The translations under genes and the position numbers were made by a program. The notes below the pieces were generated by a model. That model did not search any database and was not told the DNA's origin. It saw only the letters and a program-made list of their open reading frames with translations. This document shows positions 1 through 43,060 of a stretch of DNA of 64,000 nucleotides, one piece after another; position 1 is the first letter of the stretch, and the number at the start of each line of letters is the position of its first letter. The DNA comes from Cyanidioschyzon merolae (Eukaryota), in assembly GCA_000091205.1 (NCBI GenBank), contig AP006495.2; one strand, written 5' to 3'.

Positions 1-1
1 G

Positions 2-1375
2 GGGCAACTCGTACTTCTCATCACGGATCGTAGCCGCGGTTCCTATCCGTGGCCTATTCGTCTATCAGCGCCAGCAGAAAACAGCCAGCATTTGACCCCG
101 AAGTCACTCGTTGCTCGTTACACCGCACCGCCGCTGCACTTTTCCGGGCTAGAGAACCTTGTTGCAGCACTACCAGGGGAGCAAGCTCCTGTTGTGCTGG
201 TTGCTGGACCCCGCCATACCGGCAAATCAACACTCGTATCGCAGTTGAGTTTCATGGGCTGGCCCTATCACCCGCAGCCGCTCATTCTGGAACTCGATTT
301 AGGTCAGAATTATTTCTTAGCTCCTGGGTACGTCTCTTTCCATGAAGTTCGCGACTTGGCGTGGCCGATATGGAGGGCATCGACTGCGTGCCTCGAGAGC
401 GTCTTCTGCGGGAACGTCACACCATTCGCGGATCCGGCGTTGTATCGACAGGCGGTGCAGCGATTGTGGAGCGCTTGCGAAGCTTGGCGCGGGAAACGAC
501 TGGTGCTCGTGAACACAATGGGTTGGGTTCGTGGCTATGGCGAAGTGCTACTCGGCTCCGTGCTGGACACGATTCGCCCCGACCTTATCGTTTGGGTCAG
601 CGAAGGAACCGATGCGCAACACGCTGGTGGCGAAGCAGAAATAGAAGCATTCGGTACCACTGCCGGGTCACGTGTTCAGGTGCTACACGTCCAGCGAGCC
701 CCGAGTTCGGCTCACAAGCAGCGATCGCTGTTACCAGCAGTTGCGCGTGCGTCCCAACTCATCCATGAACTTGTGCAGCAGTGTGAAGATGGATTACCAC
801 GCGGAATCATTGCGGATCAGTTCCGGTGGTTTTTATGGCAGAATCAACCGGCATACCCGATTGTTCAGTTGCTTTGCAGCATCACACCGTGGTGCGTGCC
901 CCTGGAGTTCTTTGCGGCAGTATTCATGATCGAGCCGTGCGGGATGCATCGTCTCCAGCCTGGCCATGATTCGGAGCGATTATACAGCATGCTGAACGCC
1001 AGTGTCGTCGCATTGTGTGTTACTGTGATCGATAAGGAGGAACCGACGGAGGAGATATCGTTGCAGGCGCCGCAGCGATGGCTCCTGCGCTCCCCTGGTC
1101 TGGGGCTCGTGCGATCGATTGACCCACAAAATGGTCTTCTCTACATCGTGACGAGCGTACCCCTCAGCGTCCTAGAAAGCACGGTTGCTCTCGCGATGAG
1201 CCCCGAGGTGCAGCTTCCCGCAGCAGCTCTGCAACTCGGAGGCATGGAAGCGGAACCGTTTCTGGGTCTGGGGTGCACCGGAACCGCTGAGGATACGGCT
1301 TCTGATGCTGTGGTAACTTCACGGAAGAATCTTCTCCGCAGACGCCTGATGAAAGCGAAGGTGTCGCCTTCATGA
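2..1375 (+). CDS. Clp1/Grc3(NOL9)-family polynucleotide 5'-kinase, 5'-truncated by the window edge
   Basis: P-loop VLVAGPRHTGKSTLVSQL is followed by LDLGQ and a later VLVNTMGWVRGYG block that matches the Clp1/Grc3 LIINTCGWVKG motif. The track start at 92 is TTG, and the frame stays open upstream to position 2 with no stop, so the gene begins outside the window. Confidence 0.6.
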   Translation, partial: GQLVLLITDRSRGSYPWPIRLSAPAENSQHLTPKSLVARYTAPPLHFSGLENLVAALPGEQAPVVLVAGPRHTGKSTLVSQLSFMGWPYHPQPLILELDLGQNYFLAPGYVSFHEVRDLAWPIWRASTACLESVFCGNVTPFADPALYRQAVQRLWSACEAWRGKRLVLVNTMGWVRGYGEVLLGSVLDTIRPDLIVWVSEGTDAQHAGGEAEIEAFGTTAGSRVQVLHVQRAPSSAHKQRSLLPAVARASQLIHELVQQCEDGLPRGIIADQFRWFLWQNQPAYPIVQLLCSITPWCVPLEFFAAVFMIEPCGMHRLQPGHDSERLYSMLNASVVALCVTVIDKEEPTEEISLQAPQRWLLRSPGLGLVRSIDPQNGLLYIVTSVPLSVLESTVALAMSPEVQLPAAALQLGGMEAEPFLGLGCTGTAEDTASDAVVTSRKNLLRRRLMKAKVSPS

Positions 1376-1984
1376 GACGTCTACAGATCCCAGCACGCGA
1401 ATACTTCGTGTCCCAGTCGCACGCGCTGACCCTCGCGCGCAGCTAAGACTTGCCTCGTCGCAAGTGCAGGGTACCGTAAAGCGTTGCGTGATTCCCGTCG
1501 CAGCTCGAATGCTGCCGGACGTGCTCAGAAGCATATTGTAGAACAGGTCGTGTTCTGGTCCAGGTGCTGCGGTTGCTTCGTCGATGCCCGGAGAACGGAA
1601 GCGCTCCTGGCAACGCGTGCCTCGTTGGGCATCAGCAAACATCAGGGAAACCTCGTGCGCGCGCTCGCGTTATTACCAAGGCGCATTGCCGCTATGCACG
1701 ACTCGGATAGAGGTGGAACCGATGAAGTGGACCCATCATCATCCAGCGACGGCAATTGTTCCATGAACGGAATCGAGGTACGGACACGGTAGATCTATTT
1801 GCGTATGCGCGGTATCGCTGATGAACGAAACCTCGCACAGTGGACGCGTCTGGTACCCATACGTTCGCTCGGAATTCAAGCCACGTTGTTTGCATGTCCA
1901 AGCGTGGTTTCTGCATGAGTGCGGACTCTGCCCCCCAGGTATTCGCGAATACTGTGGTACCGACCAGTGCGGAGCCATTTTTTT

Positions 1985-2281
1985 CATGGACAAAACGTTT
2001 ACTTAGGCCAGCGTTCTCCGATTATGCGCTTTTTTCTTTTCTTGCTTTTTTTTGTGTTTTTTCAGTGCACGGTGAGGTATCCATCAAACCCCCTACCTCC
2101 AAGTTACATGACCCATACTTCGTCTCGGATATTCTGGTCGTTTCATACGTCTTATCGTGTGTGCCTAGTGCCTGCCGAAAGCGGCGACAGCAATAGCGCC
2201 TGTAGCGCCGGTGCGGTCGCTGCACGGAGACAGAACGGCGTTGCCGTACCACACACAGAGGGCGTCGGCTCGAGGCAGTGC
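1985..2281 (+). repeat. Dispersed ~290-bp repeat, copy A
   Basis: Near-identical over ~290 bp to 6093-6378 in the same orientation. Shared landmarks are aacgtttacttaggccagcg at the left end, the core cccatact..tctcggatat.ctgg.cgt.tcatacg, and gcgttgccgtaccaca...ggctcgaggc at the right end. Confidence 0.65.
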
Positions 2282-2411
2282 GGGGCAATGCCAGCGCAAG
2301 GCGGTGCCGATTTGCATGGCTCCTGACGCTAGACAACCGGAGCGCTGTTGCGGTCCGAGCAGCAGCACAACGCGGCCTTCACATATCAAGAGACCTATGA
2401 GGCAGCTGTTT

Positions 2412-3473
2412 TCAGGGGTTCAAATCATCTTGAATAATCTCGTCACCAAGGCCTTGCAGGCTCTCATCCTGATTCGTCACTAATCGCTTGAGTTCCAGGA
2501 AGCGCTGGCATTTGAACATAAGCGCAGGCGTCATCATGTCAAGCGCTGCGCCCCGTCCACTTCGACGTTGAGACTCCCCCAAAGTCACCGCTTCAATATC
2601 AGATGCTCGGGGACGTCTGCCCATTCGCGTATAGAAGCCATCGCTCCAGAGTTTGAGGTCCATAGCGAGTGCCGTGAACTGCCGTTTCAGCCGATCGAAG
2701 GCGTTCTCTTCTGAGGTGTCACTGTTAGTGCGGGCCTCGGTGCCTGCACGGTCTCCTCTTCGCTTTACCCAATGGCGGAGCATCGCTCGCCGAATCTTTT
2801 CTCGGGTCGCCTCAGAATGCTTCTTGCCGCGATTCCAGGCCGGTTTTCCCGACAAGGCCTGACGCATTCGTGCTCGAAACGCCGGATCTTGCCAACGTTT
2901 AGATAGGGATGCAGCTTGCTTTGCGATCGTCCCGTTCGACCGCCTGTTCTGCAAAAGCCGAGCGCGCAGCAGTGGGTCCGTCCAGCGTAATCGCATCGTC
3001 TCTGCACGGGTGCTGCTCGGCGTTCGTTTGCGTGCAGGTGGTGCCGTCGGGGACTTCGATTCCGGGTCAAGCGGCTCTGGTTCTGTGCACGCGGTTACTG
3101 CTGCAGCTGTTGGAGTAGACCGCCTAGCGTTCACAGCTTGTCGCTTCTCGTTCACGTCGTCAGGCACTGGAAAAAGCTGCCCAGAGAATACCACCCCAGT
3201 CGATTTACAGTACGTTTCAGGTGTCAGTGCCGTTGTGGCTGTGCCCACTACGTTTGCTAGGATATTGTGTGCAATTCGCGAGCTCCTGAAACCGAGGCTC
3301 TGTAAACTCGAGAGAGCTTCGTTCGCGTGTGGCACCCAACGCTGACCCTTTTGCAGCCCAAGGGTCAGGGCGGACGTCACGTCACGCGTTGTGTGTAACT
3401 TGCAGCGCAGGGGAACCGCTTTACGACCGCAGCGCTCCATTTTGCAATTGCTGAAAGCAGAACAAATGAACAT
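2412..3473 (-). CDS. Hypothetical protein with tandem W-x-DP-x-x-RAR motifs and a NUMOD3-like G-K-K-HSE-x-T-R-E-K-I segment
   Basis: Uninterrupted GC-rich ORF. The track start at 3491 is TTG, and the first ATG checked is at 3473. The repeats LRWTDPLLRARLL and KRWQDPAFRARMRQAL, followed by GKKHSEATREKIRRAM, resemble NUMOD3-type DNA-binding motifs. I know of no other homology. Confidence 0.35.
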   Translation of the reverse strand: MFICSAFSNCKMERCGRKAVPLRCKLHTTRDVTSALTLGLQKGQRWVPHANEALSSLQSLGFRSSRIAHNILANVVGTATTALTPETYCKSTGVVFSGQLFPVPDDVNEKRQAVNARRSTPTAAAVTACTEPEPLDPESKSPTAPPARKRTPSSTRAETMRLRWTDPLLRARLLQNRRSNGTIAKQAASLSKRWQDPAFRARMRQALSGKPAWNRGKKHSEATREKIRRAMLRHWVKRRGDRAGTEARTNSDTSEENAFDRLKRQFTALAMDLKLWSDGFYTRMGRRPRASDIEAVTLGESQRRSGRGAALDMMTPALMFKCQRFLELKRLVTNQDESLQGLGDEIIQDDLNP

Positions 3474-3614
3474 CACCGCAAAGGCACACAAAACGCCGTT
3501 CTAAACTCGAACGACGCCGACCGTCTACAGTAGTGGCGAGAAGCCCGCCCTTGACAAGAAATCTCCAACTGACGTGCGGACGCCTCCTGGTCTTGTTCGA
3601 CCGGCCACCTACTA

Positions 3615-5922
3615 CTATTTCCAATTTTTTTCATATAGTTCGACTTTAAGAGATTCTCCTACAAAATTCTCTCGTGTCAACTTTGGGGGTCTGTTCTCCA
3701 TCACCGCACATCTCCTTATAATGATTGCGGCGTTAAAGTCCCGGTTCACAAACCCCACACGTTTCTTGCCATTGATTGTACTTTCTAATGCAAGTAGTCC
3801 ACGAACTTTCGCTCTCCTTTCCATTCGCTCTTCCGTCAGCGCTCCGTACTTTGCTATATCCTCAGGGCTCCGCTGGCCCTTTTCTATCTCCACTCTCTGA
3901 AGTGTACAACCTGGCTCGTGGTGTGTGTAGCACCTTCAGATCCCATCTATCGGTATCGGAACGAAACGCCGTGCACACTCCTTGTGCGTTCTGGTCGTTG
4001 GAGCTGGCGTAGTCCCTTTTTGGGGCTTCCAGCGCCCTGCCCCGTATGCTACTACGAGCCTCTGACTTTCATCCTCATTCAGGGCGCTCAACTGATTGAA
4101 AAAATTCGCGAACGCCCGCTGTTTCCCACAGTATAGATTCATTCGCAGATGAGCCCACCGGGGCTGGGTATACTCTTTCCACAGCGACTCCCAGTGAGCA
4201 GGGCGAACTTTCATGAATTTCCGAAACGCTTGACAGTCTGCTCCGCGGCTCGTCACCTCGCCCAAAGCTTCCAGGTGATCCTTCATTCCTGCATTCTACG
4301 TAACGATTTTCTTCCTTGCATTCATTATACCGGATTCTCGATGGTACCGTGCTCTCGAGAATCTCAAAAGACGCATGTCTTTCTGACGCAAGTTGCCGGC
4401 AGTACCATCTTCCGCACGTTTGGGTACTGCGATGGTTATGATATTTGTGTTTCCGGGGTCCGCGCCAACGACAAAGTCGTTCTCATGCACTTCCTGCGTG
4501 GTAGGATCCGCCTCCTTCTCATCTTCATGATTCGCCGCGCCTACGAAAAGGTCGTTCCCCTCCACCTCCTGCGTCACAGGATCCGCCTCTTTGTTTTATT
4601 CATGCTTCGCCGAGGTCGAAGCCGAGGGCGGGACAGGGCGATTTGTCTTCGACTGCCGATAGTGTACGCACATGGCTACCCAATCGGTTCCGATCATCCC
4701 AGTGAATACCTTTTGTTTGCTCAGTCGGAGACGTTTAAAATCGAAGATACTCTTCCTGTACGTCTCTCGGTTTTCACCTATGAACTCCTCCCTGCTAACA
4801 TTGAACTCGGGACTGATCTCCTTCATGATGCCGTAAAGGACTCTGGGGTCGATAGTCACAAAATGCGCCTTGATGTTGCACAACTGAATGACGTTGAAGC
4901 GCTTGCCCATTAGGAAAGCCTTCCGTCTCTCCCACTCTTCATTCCATTTCCTCAATCAGCTTCATCTCCGCCTTCCGTTCGAGTTTCCGGTTCAGGAATA
5001 CGAAATGGCGCAGAATGAGGCGATAGTATCTTTCCTCATCTTTTTTCAACTCTGATATCTTGTCTGCTGGATTCGCCAGCCCCAAGAATGCACGATGCTC
5101 TTGTACAGCCGCACAGATTACAGAAGCTTCATTCGTGCTCTTGTTTGACACCTTCTTCCCAACAAATTCGATATCCTGTTCATGCTTGCGATCGTTCGTG
5201 ATGCCATTGATAATCGCCTATACTCCGTTGCGAGACAGGCCCGAGCACAGCGCAAATACGGCGCGTATCATGAAACTTTCGAGGTTCATAGTCAAATGCT
5301 TCTTCAGGTTCGTGATGTACTTCATCGCCCGATAGTCGTAAATATCCACGTGACCCTTGTATCGAGTACCATCGAAGCTGTAAAAGGGATTTTTTTCGTG
5401 GAGGGCGTGAACTCGCTCATTTTCCCTCCGCGCTTCCGCTGTGCCAAGCATCAGGTGCCGACTAAAATTCTTATCGAAAAATCCTCCGGAATCTCGACCG
5501 TTTCCATGTGCGTCACCTCGCGATACATCTCCCGCACCAAATGCATCAGTCCTGAGGACGCCTTGACAATACTCTTGGAGTACGAGTCGATACTTTTTCG
5601 ATAGCGTGTCGCAACTTTTCCCTGTAGGGATCCTTGATATGTCCAAGAAGAAAGGTTTTCACCACCCTCTCGTCGTACAGCCGTCTTTCTTGGCGCCTTC
5701 GACGGAGGACCTTCCCCCTTCGGTTCTTCTTCTCTTCCTTTTCTTCCGGACTCGGCACTGTTTTTTTCTGGCAGCCGGCGACCGTTGGCCTCCAGGATCG
5801 TCGACTTGCTTTTTCATAACTTTCCTTTTTTTAAGTTCTTTTGAAAAATAACGCTCTTTGAACCCTTCTGTTATATACCGCGAAAAACACTTGAATACAC
5901 TTGTTTGAGGTTCCAAAAACAA
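3615..5922 (-). pseudogene. AT-richer block with a chain of frameshifted minus-strand ORF fragments; candidate degenerate transposon-derived coding remnant
   Basis: Minus-strand ORFs 5659-5922 (K/R-rich, NLS-like), 5546-5758, 5218-5646, 4939-5151, 4596-4955, 3936-4286 and 3615-3893 follow one another in different frames. This stretch is visibly more AT-rich than its flanks. I recognise no intact domain. Confidence 0.3.
4476..4621. repeat. Imperfect ~73-bp tandem duplication
   Basis: gtcgttctcatgcacttcctgcgtggtaggatccgcctcc... recurs as gtcgttcccctccacctcctgcgtcacaggatccgcctct.... This duplication produces the low-complexity ORFs 4149-4913 (+) and 4296-4577 (-). Confidence 0.5.
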
Positions 5923-6092
5923 ATGAACTGAATGACTGTACCTGGCTACGACCTCAACGAAAATACAAATTCTACATGAGATCTACATGCTAGAGATCAG
6001 GATCATGTTTCCCTTCAATGGCGGCATGCGCGTCGCGCCAGTTGACTGCCCGACCTCCGAGGTGCGCTCACTAAGCGCGATTCTTTTTTTCT

Positions 6093-6378
6093 CATTGACA
6101 GAACGTTTACTTAGGCCAGCGGCCTCCGATTGAGCGCTTTTTCTTCTCATACTATTTTTCTGTTTTTGTAGTGCGCGGTAAAGTATCCATCAAACCCCGT
6201 ACTTCCAAGTTCCGTTGCCCATACTTTTTCTCGGATATACTGGCCGTCTCATACGTTCTATCGTGTGCTGAGTACCTGACTCGTTCGTCCGCATTAGCGC
6301 CCATAGCGCCTGCGCCGCCGCTGTACGGAGATAGCACGACGTTGCCGTACCACAAAGGGCATCGGCTCGAGGCCTGCT
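6093..6378 (+). repeat. Dispersed ~290-bp repeat, copy B
   Basis: Same-orientation duplicate of 1985-2281, with the same left and right landmarks. Confidence 0.65.
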
Positions 6379-7176
6379 TCATCCGACGTAGAATCGGGTC
6401 TCGTCCTCAGTTTGTGCTCGGACAGTCTGCGGATGCAGGCTTGTCTTCGCTGCACGACACGCTGGAGAAACTTGGCTGTTAGGATATATCATGGGAGCCG
6501 CCTCTTTCCTTCGCGATCATGCATGGAATGCGTCGTTGTCGGTTGGCAATGCGGGTTTGTGTTTGACACCCACCACAGTGGGTAGGCGTAGAGAGCACTA
6601 AACCCGTGTGCGCATCCGATTCGCTCGACCTTCCGCCTAGAAGGTAGAGTGTGAGTTTGTTCGCCACTTATGAGCGCTGAGGCTCGGTTAGCGGACCATC
6701 ACATGCCAGTGCTACACTCAAAGTGAGTGTCCGGCCTTTGACTATCACGCTGCTGCCCAGCTGCTGCTGTCCTTCAAGGAGCTCGCTGTGCTCCTGCTTC
6801 CAGCGCGGGCACTGTAAGCCTAAATATGGCAGCGTCCGGGGGTCTCGTTTCCACAGCAGGGACAGTGTGATTCCCAGTGCGTTTCCAGTGTCCCTATACG
6901 GCTTAGAGGCGGTGCTGCTAGCCAGAAGCCGGCAACGTAGATTTGCGTCTTCTGGATACACTGCCGCACAACAGCGCACGCCGAGATCGACCACCGCCGT
7001 AGCCTCCACCAGTCGTACTGCAGCCGATGATGCTCGCACGCTGGCCCTGAGCGGCATCTCGATCTCTTTTGTGAGAAAGATACGGGTCACTGCTGTACAG
7101 CGATGACCGGAGCTCGCTAGGGAGTCTTATAGGATAGGTTGATGTTCCGACTTTCTTCGCATTCTTTTTTCTCGAG

Positions 7177-8457
7177 ATGACTAAAGAGTGTAAAGCGAAT
7201 CTGGCTCGGACGAGCGCACGTCACGAGCAGCTCGCATCGAAGCCGTTTGGTTTCTGTTACACCGTGCTGCGGGAGGAGAACTCGCACCAAGCGCGTGACG
7301 AGCTTTCCGATGCAATTCGAACCCATTTTGTGAACGCGAAAGTCAACGAGCGGTCCATACCTTCGCGATTTTTCTATGACGACGCTGGAACAGCGCTGTA
7401 TGAACGCATCACCTGCACTGAAGACTACTATCTCACGCGATGTGAACGGGAGATTTTCCGTAAATACTGCGATCGGATATTGAACATCGCAGTTGGACTG
7501 GACGAAGATGCACCTATTCGATCGCACTCTCCCAATGAGAGAGCCTTACATATCATCGAACTGGGCGCTGGCGACGGACACAAAACAGCAGTGCTGGTGC
7601 AGCGTGCTCTGCAACGTGGCCTGCACATCACGTACCGTCCCATTGACATCAGTGAGCGCGCCATGACGGACTGTGCGGAGCGCATCCTCGCAACGCTGAG
7701 CGACCCCGAGAATGGTCATCAGCGTTTGGAGCATTCGAGTGTTGAAGCGCAGTTCACCTTCCATGGTATTGTGGGTGATTTCTTCGAAGGACTTGGATAT
7801 GCGCTGCGCGCACCAGGACGGCGTCTGCAGAACCCTGTTGAGGATCGACTACTGGCAAACGCGGGCAACGCGGGGTATGGTGCAGCTCCCGAGTCAGCTC
7901 ATGAGCATGCTCGGCACTTAGTCATGTTCATTGGATCTTCGATTGGCAACTTTGATCCCACGAACGCTATAGCATTCTGTAAGCAGGTTCGGAGCTTGCT
8001 GCAGCCTGCCAGGGATCACTTTCTTGTCGGGTTCGATCTGCGAAAACCTTATGCAATCATGCACCGAGCGTATAGTGACCGTGAGGGTATTACTGCAGAA
8101 TTTAACCGCAACTTGCTCCGTCGTGTGAACAGAGAACTTGGATCCAATTTCAATCCGGCGAAGTTTGAACATTTTGCCCAGTACAATGTTCGACTCGGGG
8201 CGATGGAGAGCTTCCTTGTCGCCACCGAGCATATGCGTATTGTTTTTCCAAATCTGGCGATGGACACGACGGCGTTGCCGACTGGGAACGAAATCGCGAT
8301 AGAGCTGCGCCCCTGGGAAGCCATCCATACGGAGTACAGCTGGAAGTATACTTTAGAGGACATTTCTGCGCTGGCACAGAAAGCTGGCTTTAGTAGGATT
8401 GCTGCGAATTTCTTTGATTCGAAGAACGGGTTTGTGGACAGTATCTTCGCTCCGTAG
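7177..8457 (+). CDS. EgtD-family SAM-dependent methyltransferase (L-histidine N-alpha-methyltransferase-like, Methyltransf_33)
   Basis: ATG verified at 7177. Motifs FFYDDAGTALYERIT..EDYYLTRCE, IELGAGDGHKT, FIGSSIGNF and EFNRNLLRRVNRELGSNFNPAKFEHFAQYN match the EgtD signature (FYDA.GS.LF..I..LPEYYPTRTE; FLGSTIGN; AFNRNVL..VNREL...FD...FEH.A.WN). Confidence 0.8.
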   Translation: MTKECKANLARTSARHEQLASKPFGFCYTVLREENSHQARDELSDAIRTHFVNAKVNERSIPSRFFYDDAGTALYERITCTEDYYLTRCEREIFRKYCDRILNIAVGLDEDAPIRSHSPNERALHIIELGAGDGHKTAVLVQRALQRGLHITYRPIDISERAMTDCAERILATLSDPENGHQRLEHSSVEAQFTFHGIVGDFFEGLGYALRAPGRRLQNPVEDRLLANAGNAGYGAAPESAHEHARHLVMFIGSSIGNFDPTNAIAFCKQVRSLLQPARDHFLVGFDLRKPYAIMHRAYSDREGITAEFNRNLLRRVNRELGSNFNPAKFEHFAQYNVRLGAMESFLVATEHMRIVFPNLAMDTTALPTGNEIAIELRPWEAIHTEYSWKYTLEDISALAQKAGFSRIAANFFDSKNGFVDSIFAP

Positions 8458-10175
8458 CGAAGGAAACGACGGACGCACCCACGCACGCGCTTGCTGACTC
8501 GGTAAGCGAAACTCGTGTAAGCGGTATCGGATCGCTTTGGCGAACTGAATTGCATTTTGCGGGCTGGTCAAGGCACAAACCAGCGCTCGAGTCCAAGCAC
8601 CGCACAACATCGGTGACTGTCATGTACCGTGCCTGTGCTACTCAGTGCTATATAGCGTAAACTTCCTGAGATCAGTGGCAAGCTTTTCCCATCCCAGAGA
8701 TGACGCTGGTTTCAAGCGCCGGTGGGTTGAAATTGCACGGATCCTCTGGATACCACAACGGAATGCTTTGGAACAGAGTTCCATACGGAAGGCTTTGGAT
8801 CACATTGCCGGCCAGAGCAGGTCTATCGAGATCCCGGCGCTTCGGCATAGAAAAAATGGGAAAGCTGCTCATTTAGTGTACTCAACGCGAGAAAGGCCTC
8901 CTGGTTTCCGCGCCACAGTGTCCATCTGTGCGCAGGAAGACGGGCGTCTAGAGCGTCGCGTATCTGGGACGCAGCGCCACGGTACAGCGTCCACAGAAAA
9001 CAAAGCACAAACGATGCCAGAGATTTCTGTCGCAGATTTTTGGGTTGACGATCTCTCTCGACTGGCAGGATCGCCTAATGATAGATCTCAGTATACCCAA
9101 AACTTTCATAGTCGTATCCACGATCCGGTATTTCTCGCAATATACGGGGTGTGATGCGTGCTTTCCTGACTGCATGAGTCTGCTCTGCCGAGCCGCCTGC
9201 AGATACCACTCGTTATCCGCGGCACGCTTCAGCGCAAGTCGTTTAAACACATCGGAAAGCGGTCTGCAAATGCCACGCACCATGGTAGTGGTATCTATCT
9301 CGCCACAGCAACAGCTCGGAATTCAAAAACGATGTTTAACGGATATCCGGCGCGATCGTTGACTTTCGCGATACTTGCAATGTCTGGATCTTTTCCGGCA
9401 GGTTCGCTGCTCAGAATTCCGATTAGGCTGCACAGAAACTGCCTCTGACCAGGTGTTAAAAAAAGCCTCCAAGTCGTGTGCAGTGCTGAGCACCAAACAT
9501 CTTCGATATGAAGTGCACTGTGGGTAATGATTCGGCGCGGACTCCGCGGCGCATGATTCCTGATGAAAGACATCCCAGATGTACGGCAGCTTTGCTGTTT
9601 TGCCATCGGGCCAAGGCAGAGACGAGCAAACCCCGTGAGCAGACCGTGAATCCCGTCCACGCATCATAAACCACGCCAAATCTACGATAACCAAGCTCGA
9701 GCCAGAGGCGGCACCCGCGCCGTCGAATCACAAGAGCGCATCGAAAGCGCACTGCTTTCTTCGAGGTGCTGGTACAGCACGCAGCGGATAACCTCCCGCC
9801 ACAATCACAGCTTGCCGCCAGCAGAGATCTAAATGGCGGTTACGAATAATCGCCACCAAAACTAGATGCAAAAATTGTAGCAGCATTTCACGAAGCGCAT
9901 GGGCTCCGCATGCCAGTTATCGTAGATTGCAGCGCTGCATCGCGACACACCTCAAACGTTGGTCTCCTGCAGTCAACGGTTCAACGGATCCATCACGATG
10001 AGGAAAATCACATATCGGGCTAGCGACGTGCGCAGACGCCTTGTCCACGGCTCACCACGAATGCCCACCCTGGACTCGATTCCCCACTGAGCTGCAGCGT
10101 ATCGTTTTCAGCAGTAGATCGGACAAGTGACGCTCGGCAGGCGCTGATGCGTTGCATCTGGCGCTCGGTGCACGC

Positions 10176-14708: not shown

Positions 14709-15677
14709 CCCAGCAACTGTCCGTTTCTTCAAGCACCGGAGCGATGGATGATCGTCACAGTCGATCCTATTTCTTATAACCCAGCAACTGTCCGTTTCTT
14801 CAAGCACTGGAGCGATGGATGATCGTCACGGTCGATCCTATTTCGTATAACCCAGCAACTGTCCGTATCTTAAAGCACTGGAGCGATGGATGATCGTCAC
14901 AGTCGATCCTACTTCTTACATCCCAGCAACTGTCCGTTTCTTCAAGCACTGGAGCGATGGATGATCGTCACGGTCGATCCTATTTCGTATAACCCAGCAA
15001 CTGTCCGTTTCTTAAAGCACTGGAGCGATGGATGATCGTCACAGTCGATCCTACTTCTTACATCCCAGCAACTGTCCGTTTCTTCAAGCACTGGAGCGAT
15101 GGATGATCGTCACAGTCGATCCTATTTCTTATAACCCAGCAACTGTCCGTTTCTTCAAGCACTGGAGCGATGGATGATCGTCACGGTCGATCCTATTTCG
15201 TATAACCCAGCAACTGTCCGTTTCTTAAAGCACTGGAGCGATGGATGATCGTCACAGTCGATCCTACTTCTTACATCCCAGCAACTGTCCGTTTCTTCAA
15301 GCACTGGAGCGATGGATGATCGTCACAGTCGATCCTATTTCTTATAACCCAGCAACTGTCCGTTTCTTCAAGCACTGGAGCGATGGATGATCGTCACAGT
15401 CGATCCTATTTCGTATAACCCAGCAACTGTCCGTATCTTCAAGCACTGGAGCGATGGATGATCGTCACAGTCGATCCTATTTCTTATAACCCAGCAACTG
15501 TCCGTTTCTTAAAGCACTGGAGCGATGGATGATCGTCACAGTCGATCCTATTTCGTATAACCCAGCAACTGTCCGTATCTTAAAGCACTGGAGCGATGGA
15601 TGATCGTCACAGTCGATCCTATTTCGTATAACCCAGCAACTGTCCGTATCTTAAAGCACTGGAGCGATGGATGATCG
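14709..15677. repeat. 71-bp minisatellite, about 13.6 tandem copies
   Basis: The unit CCCAGCAACTGTCCGTTTCTTCAAGCACTGGAGCGATGGATGATCGTCACAGTCGATCCTATTTCTTATAA recurs with period 71. Unit variants differ at ttcttataac / ttcgtataac / cttcttacatc and at cttcaag / cttaaag, and units 4-6 equal units 7-9, giving a 213-bp higher-order repeat. A short (GAC/GAT)n tract follows at 15690-15720. Confidence 0.9.
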
Positions 15678-16041
15678 CCTGCGTATGTGGCGGTCAAACG
15701 ACGACGACGACGATGACGATCTGCGTCGCCATCGAGGTGGCGTTTCTACCTAGCGCCTGTCCGCCGTCGCTTAAACACTAGGTAGCCATTGCGTTTTCTG
15801 TACTCGTTGGAGGGGGACTTTGCTTGAACGGTGTTGGTAACGAACTGGGTCCAGGGCAGCAAGGTATTTCCCAAAAAGACGCTGGCTGAAAGACACTCGA
15901 ACACGTCAGTCAAGCGAGGACTTTGGACATAGTCCTTGTGGACGCAGAAGCAAACGAGCCTGGGTCTTTTTGCGTCGCGAGGCGTTACCGAGCGCATCGA
16001 CTACAGTCTGACGCACCCCTAGGATCGGAATAGTGACTTTA

Positions 16042-19000
16042 ATGGGGGATTTGGGTGAACATGCACCGTCGAATGGCTCCGCAAAGGATAGCGTTCGGCG
16101 CTATGTTGAGGAACACGGCGGTAGTAGACCAATTCAGCGCTTATTGGTCGCAAACAACGGAATCGCCGCCGTAAAGTGCATCCGATCAATGCGAAGATGG
16201 GCATACGAAGCGTTTGGTAGTGAACGAGCGCTGGAGTTTGTAGCAATGGCCACTCCCGAGGATGTTCAAGCCAACGCCGACTACATTCGCCTCGCTGACC
16301 TCTTCGTTCCCGTACCTGGGGGAAGCAACAACCACAACTACGCCAACGTGGAGCTCATCGTCGACATCGCGGAAAGGAACGAGTGCGATGCAGTATGGGC
16401 GGGTTGGGGTCACGCCAGCGAGAACCCGCTGCTGCCCGCTCGCCTTGCGGAGACTGGTATCGCATTCCTGGGACCGGATGCCATTGCCATGAGGGCGCTC
16501 GGCGACAAGATTTCGTCAACGTTGTTAGCTCAGTCTGCGGATGTTCCAGTCGTCAGCTGGAACGGTGATGACTTGAAGGTAACTTTTCACCGCGAGCGCG
16601 GCGGTATTGATGAAGAACGCTATCGCCGTGCCTGCGTTGCGAATGTCGACGAGGCTCGCGCTGCTGCCGATCGTATTGGCTACCCAGTGATGATTAAAGC
16701 CAGCGAAGGAGGCGGTGGCAAAGGCATCCGTCTTTGCCGTCGACCAGAGGATGTTCGAGATGCCTTTCGTCAGGTCGCCGGAGAGATTCCTGGCTCTCCG
16801 ATCTTCATCATGAAAATGGTGGATCAAGCGCGACACCTGGAAGTGCAGATTGTTGCCGATGAATACGGGCACGCGATAGCGCTATATGGGCGTGACTGCT
16901 CCGTGCAGAGACGGCATCAAAAGATCATCGAGGAAGGGCCAGTTACGGCAACGCCACCGCAGGTTTGGAAAGAGCTCGAACATGGAGCGGTGCGTCTTGC
17001 CAAAATGGTCGGTTACGTAGGTGCCGGCACTGTTGAGTATCTCTACGACGGTCGACGTTTCTATTTCCTGGAACTGAATCCGCGCTTGCAGGTGGAGCAC
17101 CCAGTAACCGAGTGGATCACTGGCGTGAACCTGCCTGCAGTCCAGCTGCAGATTGCCATGGGGATTCCGCTCCAGCGTATTGCAGCTATCCAAGCACTTT
17201 ACGGCAATAGACCGGACCTGGATCTCGAGCGACACCAGCCGAACCCGCCGCATGGCCACGTAATCGCCTGCCGCGTTACCGCAGAAAATCCCGAGGAAGG
17301 ATTCCAGCCGACAAGCGGCTCCATTCAGGAGCTTTCGTTTCGAAATACGCCCAATGTGTGGGGCTATTTCAGCGTCGGCGCCTGGGGTGGTGTCCACGAG
17401 TACGCTGACTCGCAATTCGGGCACCTTTTTGCCTGGGGTGCGGATCGCGAGATGGCCCGGAGGAATATGGTGCTGGCACTGAAAGAGCTCAGCATCCGCG
17501 GAGATATCCGCACAACGGTGGAGTATCTTATTACGTTGCTGGAGCTCGAATCGTATCGCGAAAATCGCATCCATACCCGTTGGCTGGACAACCTCATTGC
17601 CTCCAAAGTGAAACCAGAGCGACCGCCGTTCCATATCGCTGTTGTGCTTGGTGCAGTCCATCAGGCGTACAGAGCCTGGTCTGAGCGCCGGCGATCTTTT
17701 GTTGAGTCGCTGAGTCGCGGTCAAGTGCCGCAGCGTATTGACGCTACCTTCATAGAATTTCAGTTCGAGCTGATCTACGATGAGCTCAAGTACGCGCTCA
17801 TCGTCAGGCAAGCGGGTCCGAATGCCTTCCACGTCTCCCTAGCACAGCATCCCGAGGAACGGGTGCGTGTTGATTTCCGACCTCTGCTGGACGGTGGTCT
17901 CTTGATCATGTGCGATGGTCGCTCCTTCAATACTCACTCCAAGGAGGATTCCACTGGCATGCGTCTGAGCATCGACGGGCGAACCTGTGTGTTCCCAGGC
18001 GAAATGGACCCTACGCGCATTGCAGCACAGGCCTCGGGGCGTCTCGTCCGATACCTGGTTGCCAACGAGGAACACGTCGATCAGGGACAAGTCATTGCGG
18101 AGATTGAAGTCATGAAAATGTATCTGAGCGTGCAGGCTCCCGAACCGGGCACCATTCACTTGCTGAAACCAGCGGGAGCGGCCCTGGAGCCAGGCGAAGT
18201 TTTTGCGCAGCTCGATCTCGACGATCCGAGCAAAGTTCGACGGGTGACGCCATTTACTGGGCGCTTTCCGACAATGCTGCCTCCACAGCGACTGGGAAAG
18301 AAACCGCACCAGCGCTTTGAGAGCGCGAAACAGCAGATCGAAGCGCTCCTGGACGGCTACGATGTTGATATGGAGCCGCTCGGCATGCTTCTGCAGCTGG
18401 CGAGCACCGAACCGGCAGTACCGGCCGGGAAACTGCAGGAGGCGCTCTCTTTCCTAGCCGGTCGTATTCCGTCGACGTTGCATGCCGCCCTTCTAGGACA
18501 AGTTTTCGAACTGCGTTCCGTTGCTCGTGATGATCACGAGCGCCTCCAACAGCATTTCCGCGAAATGAAGCGCATGATCAGCGATTTCTGCGAGCAACTT
18601 GCCATCGCAGCGGACCGCGAGGCGCTGGAGGCTACCCTGCGCCCCCTGACCAGTATCCTGGAGGCGTATGTTCGCGGGGGCCTTCGCGGCTACCACGAGC
18701 ATCTCGTTGTATGCCTCATGCAACGCTATGTGAATACGGAGAAGTATTTTGCGCAAGGTCGGCGGCTCGATGAGGTTCTATTCGATCTGCGCGAACAACA
18801 CCGCGAGCACTTGGAAGTTGTTGCGGATATCATGCTCGCACATGCCCAGTTAGCGCGAAAGAACCAACTGATGCTCGCTTTGCTCGATCACATAGCCGCG
18901 GATGCATCGCTTCTGCGCAGTGTCATTGTCCGGCAGTGCCTTCACGAGGTGGCTGCGTTCATCCACCCCGACTATAGCCAACTGGCGCTGCGAGCAAGAC

Positions 19001-22000
19001 TCTTGCTGGCGAGTTCTCGTCGCCGAGCGCTCCCCGAACGTCGAGAGCGCCTCTGCAAGCAGATCGAACAGGCTGTACATGCGCCCACTGAAGAACAATG
19101 CTATCGTCTGTTGCACGCGGTGGTCGAGTCCCAGGAAAGCATCCTGGATGCGCTGGTGAGCCTAACCATGAACCCGGGGGTGCCGGTGGAGATTCGCAAA
19201 GCCGCTGTCCAGTGCCAGATCCTGCGGGCCTACAAAGCGTACCACGTGTACGATCTGGTTGTCGAACTTGACGAGGAACTGGGTTTCCTGCGGGCGTTGT
19301 GGCGTTTCCAGTATCGTTCAAACCTGAACGCTTTTGGTAGTCATTCCAGTATGCGGTCGTTTCCGGCGGCATTGGTGGCGGCGTCGGCTCCGCTAGCCCG
19401 CCGGCAGCTGCGTAGCTACGACTCTGCGGACAATTTGCAGAACTGGGGCTTTCGAGTCGGTATGTTGGTCGTCTTTGAGACGCTGCGGGCGATGGTGCAG
19501 GGTTTCGATCGTGTGCTCCAGGTTTTTCGAGCGGAAACCGGCGGCGAAACGCTGGCTTCGCCTCGTACCAAGTCGAGCGCCGCAGTCGATTCCAGTGCAG
19601 ACTCCAGTGCTGAAGGTATTGGTGTCAATGTACTGACCATCGCCATTCCCTGGACGGCCGTGGAGGTCGCTGATTTTGCGAAATACCTGGGCGTTGCAGA
19701 CGCGGACGACCGTCTGCAGGCAAGTAATGCGAACGACTCGGAGCAGGTTGTCGCCCTGCTCACGCGTTTCTGTCGCTCTTCCGCGGAGCGCAAAGCCTCG
19801 ATGCGCGCTGCCGGTATCAAACTTGTGACCTTTTTGGTGGCACCCGGTGAACTGTGCCAGCGCACGCTGGGCTCCAGTCTGCCTCGTGAAAGCACTTATC
19901 CGGGTTTCTATACGTTGCGGGCATCGCTCGAGTACGCCGAGGATCCCATTTATCGCCACATTGATCCACCAGCGGCTTTCCAGCTGGAGCTGAATCGATT
20001 GGCGAACTTTCGTATCACCCGCTTTGAACATCCGAACCGCTCCATTCACGTCTTCTACGCGGAAGATCGAACCGACAAGGGCGACGCTCGCTTCTTCGTG
20101 CGCGCTTTTGTACGGCAAGCGGAAGTCTACGCCAGTCCCAGCGATACAGCAGCGGTTTCGATCCCGGAAGCGGAGAGGACTTTTGTGGCCTGTCTGGATG
20201 CCTTGGAAACCGCCCGTTGTGATAGGCGCTTCCGACGAACGGACTTTAATCATCTCTTCTTGCACCTGATTCCCCGGGTCTCCATCGATGTGGATGACGT
20301 CGAGGCGATCTGTACGCGCCTCTTTTATCGGTTCTCCTCACGTTGCTGGCGTTTGCGCGTGTTCATGGTAGAGATCAAAGTCCATGTGGAAAAAATGGGC
20401 CCGAAACCGCTTCGATTTATTCTCTATAATCCAACCGGACACTCGTTACGCGTTGAAGGCTACGTGGAACAGGGAGATCGTCTCCTGTCGTTGGATTCCA
20501 GCGATCCGGGTCATTTACATGGTACACCCGTCGATGAGCCGTACCAGGTACTGAACCGTATCCAGCGCCGGCGAGTTGTTGCCCAGACGCTCGAAACAAC
20601 TTACGTCTACGATTACCAGGAGCTTTTCACCAAAGCACTCCATGAGCAGTGGCGGCGTTATTCGCAGGAACGACTTTTGGGAGGATTTCGCCGCCACAAG
20701 ATACCGCTGAAACTGCTGACCTGCACGGAGCTCGTTCTCCAGGATGAAGATCATGACGAGAGCGAGCTGATAGAGACCAACCGCCCCGCCGGGGAGAATG
20801 AAATCGGTATGGTCGCCTGGCGCTACACCTTCTTCACGCCCGAGTATCCCCAGGGTCGCGATGCGATCGTCATTGCCAACGATATCACGTACCTGAGTGG
20901 ATCGTTTGGACCTCGAGAGGATCGCCTCTTTGCCAAGGCGTCTCAGCAGGCGAGAAAGCTCGGTATACCGCGCATCTACATCGCTGCGAATAGCGGAGCC
21001 CGAATCGGCCTCGCGGAAGAACTGCGCAACGTCTTCCAAGTTCAGTGGAAGGATGCACATGACCCGAGCCGAGGCTTCGACTACCTCTACCTGGGACTGG
21101 CGGATAAGCTCAAGTACGAGGATGAACTCGGCATCGTGCGAACGCGAGACGTCGGCGGCGGCAAGTACGCTCTAGTTGATATCTATGGCGCTGAGGATGG
21201 CATTGGTGTCGAGAACCTCATGGGTTCAGCGTGCATCGCTGCCGAGACCTCAGCCGCCTACAATGACTGCTTCACCATCACGTACGTCGCAGCGCGCTGT
21301 GTGGGGATCGGTGCGTACCTCGTGCGCCTGGGGCAGCGCGTTATCCAGCGCGAGCACAATGCACCGATCATCCTCACTGGCTACTCAGCGCTGAATAAGC
21401 TTCTGGGTCGCGAAGTCTACACCAGCCACGAACAGCTGGGCGGTACGAAGATCATGTATCCGAACGGGGTTACCCATCTGCGCGTATCCAATGACTACGA
21501 GGGTGTTCGGGCAATTCTGGACTGGCTCGCTTTTGTGCCTCGTATGCAAGGGGAACGACCTCCGATGATCGACTCCATCGATGCTGTGGTACGCGAAGTC
21601 GACTACGATCCACGAGTGGCTAACGAGGATATTCGATACGCCATTGAAGGCAAGTGGGTCGGACCCTTCGCTCCCGACGGGGCAAGTGTGGTCTCGTCGT
21701 CGGGCTCGTCGGTGTCGTCCAATGGTCCGGTTGCGACAGGTGCGAGCGCTGGACTGCCGCCCGTCAACATGGAGAGTGTCGGCGGTGAAGTTCGGTATCG
21801 TTCGCGGTCGCGGACGGCTTCGTATGCGGGTGCGAATGCAGCAACAGCAGCAGCACCAGGAGCAAGTAGCTTGGCGACCTCTGGAGCGGCACTTGCGAAT
21901 GCTACGGGACGAGCAGCGGCTCGGGTGAGCCTCGTATCGACCAAGCCTGCAACCGGTGTCGAGGAGGTTCCCGCGGCGTTGCCTTCGGGTTCGAGTTCAC

Positions 22001-23447
22001 TGGCGCTCCGCTCGACCGCTGTCGCTGCGCCTGTACCTCAGGAGAGAGCAAAGACGGATGCGGATGCGGATGCGGATGCGGATGCGGATGCCTTGGAGGC
22101 CACTGGAACTGCCCGAGGCGCAGATACCAGCGGTGCTGGGGCGCACGCAAGCCCTGACACCCGGCAGCCGCCCACACTGGATGCCCTGAAGACTGCGAGG
22201 TTTGCACCAGCGCCCGCTGCATTGCCGACGACAGGTTTACGCTCGCCACCACAGTCCCCGGGTTCTGTTTCTGCGTATAGCCCGTTGGAGAGTGGCTCTC
22301 CATTGGAGCCGTCCCTTGACGAGGATCACATCGCTTTCACGGACACCGATCGGATGCGGATCGGGTCGCCTTTGGTACACGCGACCGACGCCTGGGATAC
22401 GAGCAACAGCGTTCACTCGAGTAGCGCGACGACGATGGCTGCAGGTGCCGTCCGGGGCTCGCGACTGTTCACTGCGTCATCGAGTACGTCGGCGGCTGCG
22501 GGAGCAAGCGCCAGCAATAGCAGCAACAACGGTAGCAGCAATGCGAATACGAATACCATGAACAATGCTGGGAGTAGCGTGGCATCGGCAGGCGCACCGC
22601 TCAACACCACCGGTAGCATCAATACCAATACCAATGCCAATGCCAATACCAACAATATCTTGGGTAGCGGTGGTGTTGGTGCGACAGCTTCGCTGACCGC
22701 TTGGAGCGGTAACCTTCCGCCGCTACCGTACGTTCCAAATACGCTCATGGTGGTGGACAACCAAGGGTACGTGTTCCTGGCAGGCCTCTTCGACCGTCAC
22801 TCGTTTCGAGAGACGCTCGCTGGCTGGGCGAAGTCCGTTGTGGTTGGTAGAGCACGCCTTGGTGGTATCCCCGTGGGCGTTATTGCGACACAGACGGTGA
22901 CCACAGAGAAGGTTATTCCCCCGGATCCAGCGGCGCCAGACTCGCGTGAGCTTCGTGAACAGCAGGCCGGTCAAGTCTGGTATCCAGATTCATCCTTCAA
23001 GACTGCCCAAAGTATTCGTGATTTTGATCGCGAGGGTTTGCCTCTGTTTGTTCTGGCCAGCTGGCGCGGTTTCTCTGGCGGAGCACACGACATGTTCCAG
23101 GAAATACTCAAGTTTGGTTCAGAGATCGTTGACGCGCTTCGCGAGTACTCGAAACCCGTCTTTGTGTACATACCACCGGGAGGCGAGCTTCGAGGCGGTG
23201 CCTGGGTCGTCCTCGATACCGCCATCAATCCCCGCTTTATCGAAATGTACGCCGATGAAAGTGCACGTGGTGGTGTGCTCGAACCTGCCGGTACCGTGGA
23301 TATCAAGTTCCGCACCAGAGATTTGCTGAAGACCATGCAGCGCCTGCTACCATCGTCTAGACGTGATGAGAGCGATTCGAGTGCGTCCGACGTTGTCGGC
23401 ATGCTGTCTTTGGACGCATCATCATCATCAGCAGCAGCAACAGCAGC

Positions 23448-23481
<34 letters not shown>

Positions 23482-24201
23482 GCAGGTACCGCTGGGACGT
23501 CCTCTTCGACTGCTGGGCGTAGCGAGTCGCGGGTCACAAAGTCAACGGCGGACGGCTTGCCAGCCTTCGAGGCAGACGGTCGGAGTTCGCTCGAGCAAAC
23601 ACTCTTGCCCATCTTTCAGCAGATAGCCATGACGTTTGCGGATCTGCACGATACAGCGGGTCGGATGCAACATAAGCGCGCGATTCGCCGAGTGGTACCC
23701 TGGCGAACAAGTCGCACGTTTTTCTACTGGCGCCTTCGACGTCGGCTCGCCGAGGAGGAACTGCGGAGTCGCGTTTCACAAGCGGATCCGCAACTCAGCG
23801 ACGCGGAGATCGATGCGCTGCTGCGGAAATGGGCAAGAGCACATGACCCCGCTCTGGACGGTGATATTTACGAACTTGATGATCCTCGTGTCGTGCAATG
23901 GCTCGAGGACGAATTGGATAGCCAGTTGGAGCGGCGTTTGCACAAACTCCGCGAAGCACGCGCCACCTGGCAAGCTGTGGAACTGGGGAATACAGCACCC
24001 GAGGCGTTGCTTGCGGCAATTGAGCGTATTCTCGTACAAATGGATGAAGTTGGTCGCAACGAATGGTTACGAACGCTTAGTGCGCGACTCGAGAACACCT
24101 CATCCGGTTTGGGTGATCTCGAGGCGCCCAGCTCGGGTGAGCAGGCCGCACCACGACGTGTCTTGTCGGGTCGTGGTCTGCTGCGACGCTTCCTCGGGTA
24201 G
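16042..24201 (+). CDS. ACC: Acetyl-CoA carboxylase, eukaryotic multidomain type (biotin carboxylase, BCCP, central domain and carboxyltransferase)
   Basis: The track start at 16033 is GTG, and the first ATG at 16042 sits just after an in-frame TGA at 16009. The biotin carboxylase domain has [51 protein letters not shown] and ELNPRLQVEHPVTE. The biotinylation motif EIEVMKM lies at about 18106-18120. The carboxyltransferase domain has [38 protein letters not shown]. The 2720-residue length reflects low-complexity insertions. Confidence 0.95.
21680..22720 (+). repeat. Low-complexity insertion of about 350 aa inside the ACC carboxyltransferase domain, including (GCGGAT)6 encoding DADADADADADA and an NTNTNANANTNN tract
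   Basis: The insertion lies between the conserved IEGKWVGP block and the PPLPYVPNTLMVVDNQGYVF block. It is S/A/T/N-rich, and the hexamer repeat is visible at 22055-22090. Confidence 0.8.
23424..23486 (+). repeat. (CAA/CAG/ATC)n trinucleotide tract inside ACC, encoding SSSSAAATAATTTTTTTTTTTAG
   Basis: Direct read of atcatcatcagcagcagcaacagcagcaacaacaacaacaacaacaacaacaacaacagcag. Confidence 0.9.
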
Positions 24202-35428: not shown

Positions 35429-35592
35429 GACGCACAGCGTACAGCACGCCTTCAAAGAGCAGGTTCATTCGCAGCTGTTTCGAGTTCGACACCCTTCCGT
35501 CACTTCGTAAGACGCACAGCGTACAGCACGCCTTCAAAGAGCAGGTTCATTCGCAGCTGTTTCGAGTTCGACACCCCTCCGTCGCTTCGGAC
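35429..35592. repeat. 82-bp tandem duplication (2 copies)
   Basis: gacgcacagcgtacagcacgccttcaaagagcaggttcattcgcagctgtttcgagttcgacaccc.tccgtc.cttcg occurs twice back to back. It is the reason minus ORFs 35256-35537 and 35500-35913 share the peptide SNSKQLRMNLLFEGVLYAV. Confidence 0.85.
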
Positions 35593-41701: not shown

Positions 41702-42739
41702 TCGAATCACGTGGATGATCGATAAGAAAAACAGCGCCTGCGCACACACACACGCACCTCGGCGAAGCGTTAAGGTATGGATATGGTGCAGCGGTCGCGA
41801 TCGCAGCGTTCCCGTTCGAATCAACGGAAGGAGGCCACGATATTTTGCGCTCCTGGATTCGCATCCCGAAGCTGATCGTTTTTCCACTGAATTCTATGAC
41901 ACATCCCGTACGTGAACTTGAAAGCTTTCTCGCGGTGTATAGCAGGCAACCGAAATCAATATGCAATGTTTTGTATAGATTGTCGATGAATTGCCTGTAG
42001 GATATGTCCTGTACTGAACAGTGCGCGGAGGACTGCATTCCTCCTGAAGGTCTGCTATACCACAGCACTCTGATGATTCAGGAACACTGGACGGAAAGAA
42101 GCAGATACGTTCATCGCCAAAAACTGGTATTGATAAAGTGTGCCTGACGTCTATGGTAGAACACGACACTTGATCGCATTACGGAAAGCAGAAGCTACGA
42201 CAGTAGCCACCACATGTGTGGCTGTTTCTCAACAGTTTGTTCGTGCGGACCTGAAATCACTGGGATGTAAACACAAAACCAGAGTTCTAGTTCACGAACG
42301 GCCATCCTTCACCGAAATGGCACCTACAGCGTGCCTGGAACGTCGCGACCGGTATGACGCACAAAGACGACGGCTTGTTTTGCACCTCGGTGATACCTCC
42401 GCCCGAAGAACCGGTCGAAGCGTGTGTGCGTATTCGCGGAGACGGGAGCCCGTTATATGTACGATCGATCCCGAAGGGAGCTCGGAAACCACTTTGTCGA
42501 ATCATTGAAGACTTTTCTTTCGACTTCTGGCGACGTCCTTCTTTCGTACAATATCGCAGTTAAACATTCGCTTTGGGTTCCAGCTTTTGCTGATGTTATC
42601 AGGGTAGAGTTGCTCTTCATTCCTCTGTACGCTCCGTAGATCAACCAAAATGAAACTGTCTTTTGTAATGTGAAATGTAATGAACGCCACGCTGGATTTT
42701 TTCTTTAACAAAATTTTTACATGGACCATGGATCCTGGA

Positions 42740-43060
42740 TTGCGGGATGGATCGCAGCATTCGGGAAAGTGTCCACATGCAGCAACCGATGTTCCAGCTC
42801 CATAACCCATACCTCTCCTCGGATATACTGGTCGTTGCATACGCTCGATCGTGCGCCAAGCCTGCCGTGAGCGCCCGCGGCCCGTATAGCAATATTCGAC
42901 AGCGTGTCGTCCTGAAATGCGCTCTGGCTACCTCCCTGGTCACCGCGGGCATCAGCGAGCGTCGGACGTTTCGAGCTCTACCCGTGGACCCCGTATCAGT
43001 TCGTCTGTACATCGAAGCAGAACCCACACCAGATTATTCAGTTATTATGCAGGTGCCCTA
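42740..43060 (+). repeat. Dispersed repeat, diverged third copy (C), solo
   Basis: Shares the core ..cccatacctctcctcggatatactggtcgttgcatacgctcgatcgtgcg.. and a downstream gcgcccgcggcccgtatagc segment with copies A and B, in the same orientation. Similarity is lower and shorter. Confidence 0.45.

Follow-up and report, generated by a model that had tools for sequence, protein, structure and literature searches.

Locus and composition of the island

The stretch of DNA analyzed here (the window) comprises 64,000 nucleotides of contig AP006495.2 from the Cyanidioschyzon merolae assembly GCA_000091205.1, and its open reading frames (ORFs) matched exactly the C. merolae 10D proteins BAM81035.1, BAM81036.1, BAM81038.1, BAM81044.1, and BAM81045.1. 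We focused on an AT-richer island of broken coding sequence at 3615-5922 (minus strand) and on its relationship to CMe-1A, a transposable element (TE) family that carries a Fanzor1 gene. The island lies in the spacer between CMM182C (BAM81035.1, 2412-3473, minus strand), which encodes a NUMOD-domain protein directly downstream of it, and the gene for an EgtD-like methyltransferase (BAM81036, 7177-8457).

A preliminary description of this DNA had reported a chain of seven ORF fragments in shifting frames. The minus-strand chain was found, although with eight rather than seven fragments of at least 70 amino acids (aa), at 5659-5922, 5546-5758, 5218-5646, 4939-5151, 4596-4955, 4296-4577, 3936-4286, and 3615-3893. 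The span itself is too short, since homology passes both of its ends (to ~3482-3491 and 6067-6081). Three-frame translation revealed a single frame with only three in-frame stops from ~4955 down to 3615, and four frame shifts upstream of ~4955. The four peptides quoted as examples were all located in minus-strand ORFs inside the span, namely GLANPADKISELKKDEERYYRLILRHFVF in ORF 4939-5151, a 30-residue peptide in ORF 4596-4955, RLVVAYGAGRWKPQKG in ORF 3936-4286, and the string KKRKRRR in ORF 5659-5922.

The contrast in composition is genuine though modest. The GC content was 0.492 over 3615-5922 and 0.497 over the whole element (3480-6085), compared with a mean of 0.550 (standard deviation 0.021) in non-overlapping 2.6-kb windows, none of which was equally low (z = -2.6 for the element). 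The lowest value among 2.6-kb windows clear of the element and its adjoining repeat was 0.505, and the value of the element was reached by 0.7% of sliding windows, all of which overlapped it. Additionally, the purine content of the relic coding strand was 58%, and K, E, and N are abundant in the family protein. Copies of the family had a mean GC of 0.494 versus 0.557 in their flanks; the AT-richer look and the purine-rich coding strand are thus inherited from the TE family and are not specific to this locus. Composition had been put forward as an argument for foreign origin. Alone it is weak (~5 GC points), and it works only because the low GC belongs to the whole family.

No NCBI protein entry was found for the island fragments that were looked up, and fragments 3936-4286 and 3615-3893 are recorded solely as metagenome gene calls. 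A 254-aa ORF with an ATG start (4149-4913, plus strand) runs antisense to the relic, and gene callers report it in orthologous metagenome contigs; it had no Pfam match and no NCBI entry. Most likely, this ORF is an artefact that arises because the antisense frame of the purine-rich coding strand contains few stops. These records serve as a warning that pieces of the relic, and an ORF antisense to it, appear among the hypothetical proteins listed by metagenome gene callers.

Identification of CMe-1A

Alignment of the window (blastn) with the CMe-1A consensus, taken from the supplementary file of Bao & Jurka 2013 (PMC3627910), matched consensus positions 660-2196 to window 6067-4535 at 84.4% identity and consensus positions 2117-3145 to window 4539-3515 at 87.9% identity. 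CMe-1A has been described as one Fanzor1 family in C. merolae, with ~150 genomic copies, each ~80% identical to a 3169-bp consensus, without terminal inverted repeats (TIRs) and with target site duplications (TSDs) that could not be determined (Bao & Jurka 2013, Mobile DNA 4:12; PMC3627910). The 5' 635 bp of that consensus correspond to a separate repeat, TE-N2_CMe, and some Fanzor1 carriers were listed as 'classification unknown' (PMC3627910). In agreement with the reported lack of TIRs, no inverted repeats were found in window 1-9000, and neither TIRs nor TSDs were seen.

At least 353 related stretches were present in Cyanidiales metagenome contigs. We fetched 80 further copies from these contigs, and boundary coverage was determined with 84 related loci, whose similarity to the window drops sharply at ~3491 and ~6081. 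A consensus built here from 24 other near-full-length copies, with the window copy excluded, is 2715 bp long and contains an intact 803-codon ORF. The copies were 87-92% identical to this consensus, and the window copy 87.8%. Taken together, the island is almost certainly an inactive, anciently inserted copy of CMe-1A, a non-autonomous TE of C. merolae whose sole gene is Fanzor1. The preliminary description had favored foreign DNA (TE, viral, or organellar) over the decay of a native gene; the TE part of this proposal stands on the multi-copy nature of the island and its alignment with CMe-1A, and the viral and organellar parts found no support.

The decayed CMe-1A core occupies 3482-6081 (minus strand, ~2.6 kb), equivalent to ~646-3169 of the 3169-bp consensus, and consists of the Fanzor1 gene, a 5' leader, and the 3' end. 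The ORF remnant extends over 3550-5817 (minus strand), with the ancestral ATG at 5817-5815; the ancestral stop position, 3552-3550, now reads AAG. A subterminal hairpin with a 9-bp stem in this copy (3493-3517, minus strand) is followed by a tail of ~10 nt, TTTGNTGNTG (3492-3482, minus strand), with which the element ends. We placed the 3' end near 3482 because this tail is semi-conserved among copies past the last conserved hairpin, so that the semi-conserved sequence of the family passes the published consensus end by ~10 nt. The 3' hairpin, with 8-11 bp and ~10 nt away from the end, occurred in at least 28 of 32 copies. Its sequence comes in two variants, each able to fold; folded as DNA, it had a z-score of -1.1 in this copy and down to -4.8 in better-preserved copies. 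At the other end, a small GC-rich hairpin (GCGCTT-AGT-GAGCGC; 6064-6078, minus strand) stands where the conserved core begins and where the copies diverge in their 5' sequences.

Fanzor1 homology of the encoded protein

The impression that the fragments are decayed real protein sequence proved right, and database similarity was clearly present, well past anything that chance would produce. The stitched C-terminal 446 aa matched 177 database proteins at 60-78% identity (best E = 1.5e-216), all of them derived from JGI or ENA metagenome assemblies, and the contigs around several of these homologs (L001-L004) contained eukaryote-type neighboring genes. A phmmer search of 1.84 billion proteins with the longest homolog, P0001 (752 aa), yielded 1232 cluster representatives at E<=1e-3, many of which were 560-780 aa long with 28-42% identity.

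We prepared one alignment of close copies only (A1) and another of 44 distant family representatives (A2). In A2 (P0001 numbering), D484, E656, and R724 were invariant and D725 was nearly invariant (>=90%), and the conserved residues sit in the motifs GxDPG, VDEFRT, and NRDxNAAxNI. The A2 profile matched the Protein Data Bank (PDB) entries of Fanzor1 from Parasitella parasitica (9cf0, E = 1.5e-21), Spizellomyces punctatus (8gkh, E = 1.1e-11), and Guillardia theta (9cer, E = 8.6e-8), and its RuvC D, E, and D motifs align with those of all three solved chains. Because the profile matches three solved Fanzor1 proteins with the motifs aligned, the sequences identify the family as Fanzor1, the eukaryotic homolog of TnpB.

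The catalytic residues can be followed in the relic. The RuvC-I Asp codon GAC is retained at 4458-4460 (minus strand); it corresponds to the invariant D484 of A2 and aligns with DPG/DPN of the Fanzor1 structures. The RuvC-III Asp codon GAC is also retained, within VNRDFNAAIIIR (3738-3740, minus strand), next to a conserved N that has changed to I. Just upstream of the RuvC-I strand lies a 75-nt tandem repeat (25 aa, acidic; 4460-4612, minus strand), present in two copies here and in one to at least five among other elements in A1; compared with the consensus, 54 and 75 nt have been lost in frame within the repeat region here. The 25-aa repeat includes the residues preceding the RuvC-I catalytic Asp, so that the beginning of the RuvC-I strand is repeated with every unit added.

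Several results weigh against the Fanzor1-bearing CMe-1A identification. Neither the stitched translation nor close intact homologs had a significant match in Pfam or NCBIfam, so that CMe-1A is left without a significant Pfam match, and the CxxC...CxxC zinc-ribbon cysteines seen in solved Fanzor1 proteins have no counterpart in the family. AlphaFold2 on the shallow alignment A1 produced an unusable model (mean predicted local distance difference test score 31, predicted template modeling score 0.19). Direct evidence for an omega RNA was not obtained in the tests made: nothing in Rfam matched 1500-7500 at E<=1, the RNAalifold consensus for the final 180 nt was weak (-4.65 kcal/mol, one compensatory pair only), and conservation at the third codon position stayed flat toward the 3' end, with no synonymous-site excess. 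In addition, the A1 profile had no match among PDB sequences, and the match precomputed on record was a weak one to DUF8286 only. The Pfam family Cas12f1-like_TNB (PF07282) was reached by 8 of the 44 A2 members (best 5.6e-5); CMe-1 proteins had no PF07282 match and show solely HH...C...C between RuvC-II and RuvC-III.

Inactivation, age, and selection

Codon-by-codon comparison of the window copy with the consensus ORF revealed five frameshifts and four nonsense codons, in which all three stop codons are used. The frameshifts, all on the minus strand and at approximate positions, are a 7-nt deletion at 5764-5768, 1-nt deletions at 5591-5595 and 5482-5486, a 1-nt insertion at 4943-4947, and a 1-nt deletion at 3628-3632. 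The last of these separates the ORF from its basic C-terminal tail, whose coding sequence runs on in a different frame until ~3550; the tail of homolog P0003 matched window 3624-3484 (tblastn). Nonsense changes on the same strand are TGG>TAG at consensus codon 204 (5218-5220), GAA>TAA at codon 429 (4596-4598), and TGG>TAG at codon 554 (4296-4298). The fourth falls in RuvC-II (3936-3944, minus strand), where VDEFRTS has become IDGI* through CGA>TGA (3938-3936) and the catalytic Glu codon now reads GGG (3944-3942). The lost Glu is E656 of P0001, which is invariant in the 44-protein alignment and aligns with DEF/DEY of the solved Fanzor1 chains. Judged from its sequence, with frameshifts, stops, and a RuvC-II Glu turned into Gly, this copy cannot make the nuclease.

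The 7-nt deletion also explains KKRKRRR, which had been described as resembling a nuclear localization signal. The string is an out-of-frame artefact of that deletion over a purine-rich stretch; the ancestral frame at this site reads SPEEKEEKKNRRGK, 84% identical to residues 1-55 of P0001, and the true N-terminus of the relic protein is likewise basic. In the family alignment, codon positions 1+2 and position 3 were equally conserved over the first ~100 ORF codons (window 5817-5520; 0.85-0.87 vs 0.84-0.88), and positions 1+2 were clearly better conserved than position 3 downstream of them. Therefore, the N-terminal basic region shows no constraint at the protein level, or else carries one at the nucleotide level.

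Six environmental contigs encoding an identical EgtD protein were 99.2-99.4% identical to the window over 1177-9000, and all four stop codons were common to the six strains. Across these strains, the relic had 19.6 variable sites/kb, compared with 17-30 in the surrounding non-coding DNA; for the coding sequences on either side, the values were 10.4 and 3.9. The ratio of nonsynonymous to synonymous substitution rates (dN/dS) of the relic versus the consensus was 0.33, and other copies with multiple stops gave 0.32-0.52. Since multi-stop copies are equally low, the selection signal predates inactivation. A stop-free frame of at least 700 aa was kept in 3 of the 84 related loci, amounting to about two distinct intact loci. 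The relic now drifts like non-coding sequence in the spacer that separates CMM182C from the gene for the EgtD-like protein.

An empty orthologous site was not found among the orthologous contigs, all of which carry the relic except contig L092, whose sequence diverges at 6446. There, an unrelated sequence with a 160-aa minus-strand ORF (L092:1-472) is joined at window 6446, in the middle of a TE-N2-like repeat. An assembly jump across the repeat probably explains this junction, with a structural variant as the alternative.

Alternative explanations

Other origins of the island were weighed against its assignment to CMe-1A. A decayed native single-copy host gene would suit a gene-dense region, a position immediately upstream of CMM182C on the same strand, and the failure to find TIRs or TSDs, but there are hundreds of paralogous copies at other loci with unrelated flanks, and the similarity among them ends sharply at common boundaries. 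The match to a published TE consensus and the presence of further relics of the Fanzor superfamily within the same 64-kb window also speak against such a gene, and we give this origin virtually no credence. Integrated viral or organellar DNA (a giant-virus Fanzor or a nuclear insertion of mitochondrial or plastid DNA) could be proposed from a GC content below that of the host and from the occurrence of Fanzor genes in large dsDNA viruses (PMC3627910). The significant PDB profile matches, however, were solely fungal, chytrid, and cryptophyte Fanzor1 proteins (a match to PrgH at E = 1.4 was not significant), and the copies lie among nuclear genes (e.g., MFS transporter, helicase, CcmE, and peptidase), with no viral or organellar genes seen beside them. 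In addition, the organelle genomes of C. merolae presumably have a GC content far lower than 0.50. A viral or organellar source is therefore very improbable.

Given that the island derives from a TE, it might still act in some way at its present location. Introns, programmed frameshifting, or stop-codon readthrough could in theory keep the gene functional, as might be read from a dN/dS below 1 (0.33 versus the consensus) and from the long ORFs kept by some family copies. This would require nine independent ORF-breaking lesions and the loss of the catalytic Glu to be tolerated; moreover, multi-stop copies share the low dN/dS (0.32-0.52), variability across strains equals that of non-coding DNA, and the fragments looked up have no NCBI protein model, so that a working gene is hardly credible. 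Co-option as regulatory DNA, in which the 3' end of the relic would serve as promoter or 5' untranslated region (UTR) of CMM182C, is suggested by the distance of only ~10-20 bp between the end of the element and the annotated CMM182C start (3473), by their shared orientation, and by the fixation of the relic in all six environmental strains. We consider it unlikely, because no constraint was seen (19.6 variable sites/kb, the non-coding level) and gene calls in environmental contigs put the CMM182C start at 3440, downstream of the annotated one. An inactive CMe-1A copy agrees best with these data.

TE-N2_CMe repeats, 5' partners, and mobility

A TE-N2_CMe-like repeat (6086-6944, plus strand) stands head-to-head with the 5' end of the Fanzor core. 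It stops at ~6944, with other copies extending further. Window 6176-6398 (plus strand) matched CMe-1A consensus 60-282 at 74%, and window 6086-6944 matched positions 4401-5262 of contig L001 at 84%. The identical head-to-head junction of TE-N2 and core was found at ~9 non-orthologous loci, and the canonical arrangement plus at least four other recurrent 5' partners were seen at other loci. The window copy begins at approximately consensus 646-660 and lacks the canonical 5' 635-bp TE-N2_CMe in direct orientation; in place of that part, it has a diverged, inverted TE-N2-like repeat. It is a 5'-variant or truncated CMe-1A and no separate family. We had also considered 6086-6944 as an upstream module in the same orientation, which was ruled out by the consensus alignment showing a TE-N2-like repeat in the opposite orientation.

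Further TE-N2_CMe-like sequences were detected in the window. A second partial copy lies on the far side of CMM182C (1978-2276, plus strand); it forms a 79% direct repeat with 6086-6373 and matched CMe-1A consensus 84-256 at 78%. Another fragment, at 42695-42881 (plus strand), was 80% identical to CMe-1A consensus 6-178, and stretches of 41920-42690 matched the flanks of Fanzor copies at loci L055 and L067.

The structured ends raise the possibility, which we consider unlikely, that the Fanzor1 core (~2.55 kb) is a self-contained module that moves or recombines via these ends. This idea comes from the hairpin at the 5' divergence point and the 3' hairpin in two versions, together with at least five alternative repeated 5' partners, among them TE-N2_CMe in either orientation. 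Mobility of the core would then involve a single-strand mechanism resembling that of IS1341 or of rolling-circle elements but operating in a eukaryote, and the 3' hairpin might perhaps double as the last stem of an omega RNA. For an omega RNA, an exhaustive scan of column pairs returned many mutually exclusive helices, an ambiguity that arises from excessive similarity among the copies and from the recurrence of GGCG-type words. If true, a self-contained module would provide the first mechanistic handle on unclassified Fanzor1 carriers. We regard the hairpins and the swappable 5' partners as leads on the movement of TIR-less elements that carry Fanzor1 only, not as results.

Other relics and repeats in the window

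In total, this 64-kb window of the famously compact and TE-poor C. merolae genome holds at least four Fanzor1 relics. A second Fanzor1-like relic, far more decayed, was found at 58477-59663 (plus strand), with tblastn identities of 29-34% to P0001, P0097, and P0172 over 205-235 aa. Its RuvC-II (IDAFGTTYTHH) and RuvC-III (RDLRALINIRKC) are still recognizable, and it contains several in-frame stops. The third, at 45328-45918 (minus strand), includes IPIDEFGT... and is 28-38% identical to family proteins; its DNA shared 71% similarity with a portion (59230-59400) of the second relic. The fourth, at 54721-55276 (minus strand), represents a RuvC-III end (VNTDFNIA...) just upstream of a long ORF starting at 54990, and its DNA matched the CMe-1A consensus at 67-68%.

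Two tandem repeats were also observed. An array with a 71-bp unit (14709-15677; 13.6 copies, 94% matches) lies in a lower-GC stretch directly upstream of a 2722-aa ORF (16033-24201), and an 82-bp unit occurs twice with 97% identity at 35429-35589, immediately upstream of ORF 35741-37594 (BAM81045.1). As a further observation on the gene next to the element (window 3440-3491), if CMM182C starts at 3440, its promoter and 5' UTR would fall inside the relic.

Significance and comparison with known systems

CMe-1A was already published in 2013, together with its host and an approximate copy number, and the object described here is an inactive relic of a known TE family. Its discovery value is little, as the biochemical role of Fanzor1 has also been published (2023). 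Nevertheless, the assignment explains an unannotated 'intergenic' stretch on the CMM-gene chromosome of C. merolae 10D, which measures 2.6 kb, or 3.5 kb if the adjoining repeat is included. Additionally, the rebuilt intact 803-codon consensus and about two environmental loci with long ORFs are material for testing a thermo-acidophilic red-algal Fanzor1.

The bacterial and archaeal tnpB-only elements of the IS200/IS605 group (IS1341 type) contain a single gene of the TnpB family, lack a transposase, TIRs, and TSDs, and have a 3' subterminal hairpin. CMe-1A resembles them in its one TnpB-family gene, the lack of a transposase, TIRs, and TSDs, and the hairpin near its 3' end; a further hairpin was present where the core begins. 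CMe-1A differs in residing in a eukaryotic nuclear host and in having a heterogeneous 5' end rather than a defined left end. Among other IS200/IS605 features, neither a Y1 TnpA nor a common target motif among copies was identified.

Helitrons carry Fanzor1 in Chlamydomonas (PMC3627910, supplementary table). CMe-1A is similar to them in lacking TIRs, in its 3' hairpin ~10 nt from the terminus, and in combining a conserved 3' part with differing 5' parts, but it has no Rep/Hel ORF and its 3' terminus is TTTGNTGNTG rather than CTRR. With this terminus and no ORF other than Fanzor1, CMe-1A does not qualify as a Helitron.

A further comparison is with the Fanzor1 proteins of solved structure (9cf0, 8gkh, and 9cer). 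The profile matches to them are significant; they begin in the REC region and continue through the split RuvC domain, with the DPG, DEF/DEY-R/K-T-S, and NRD..A..N motifs aligned. SpuFz1 and GtFz1 have been shown to be omega-RNA-guided dsDNA endonucleases (Saito et al. 2023, PMC10432273). By analogy with the solved and tested Fanzor1 proteins, active members of the CMe-1 family would be expected to act as omega-RNA-guided, RuvC-type double-strand DNA endonucleases, and their guide RNA would likely be transcribed from the 3' end of the element. The variable acidic 25-aa tandem repeat in front of RuvC-I distinguishes the CMe-1 family from these solved Fanzor1 proteins.

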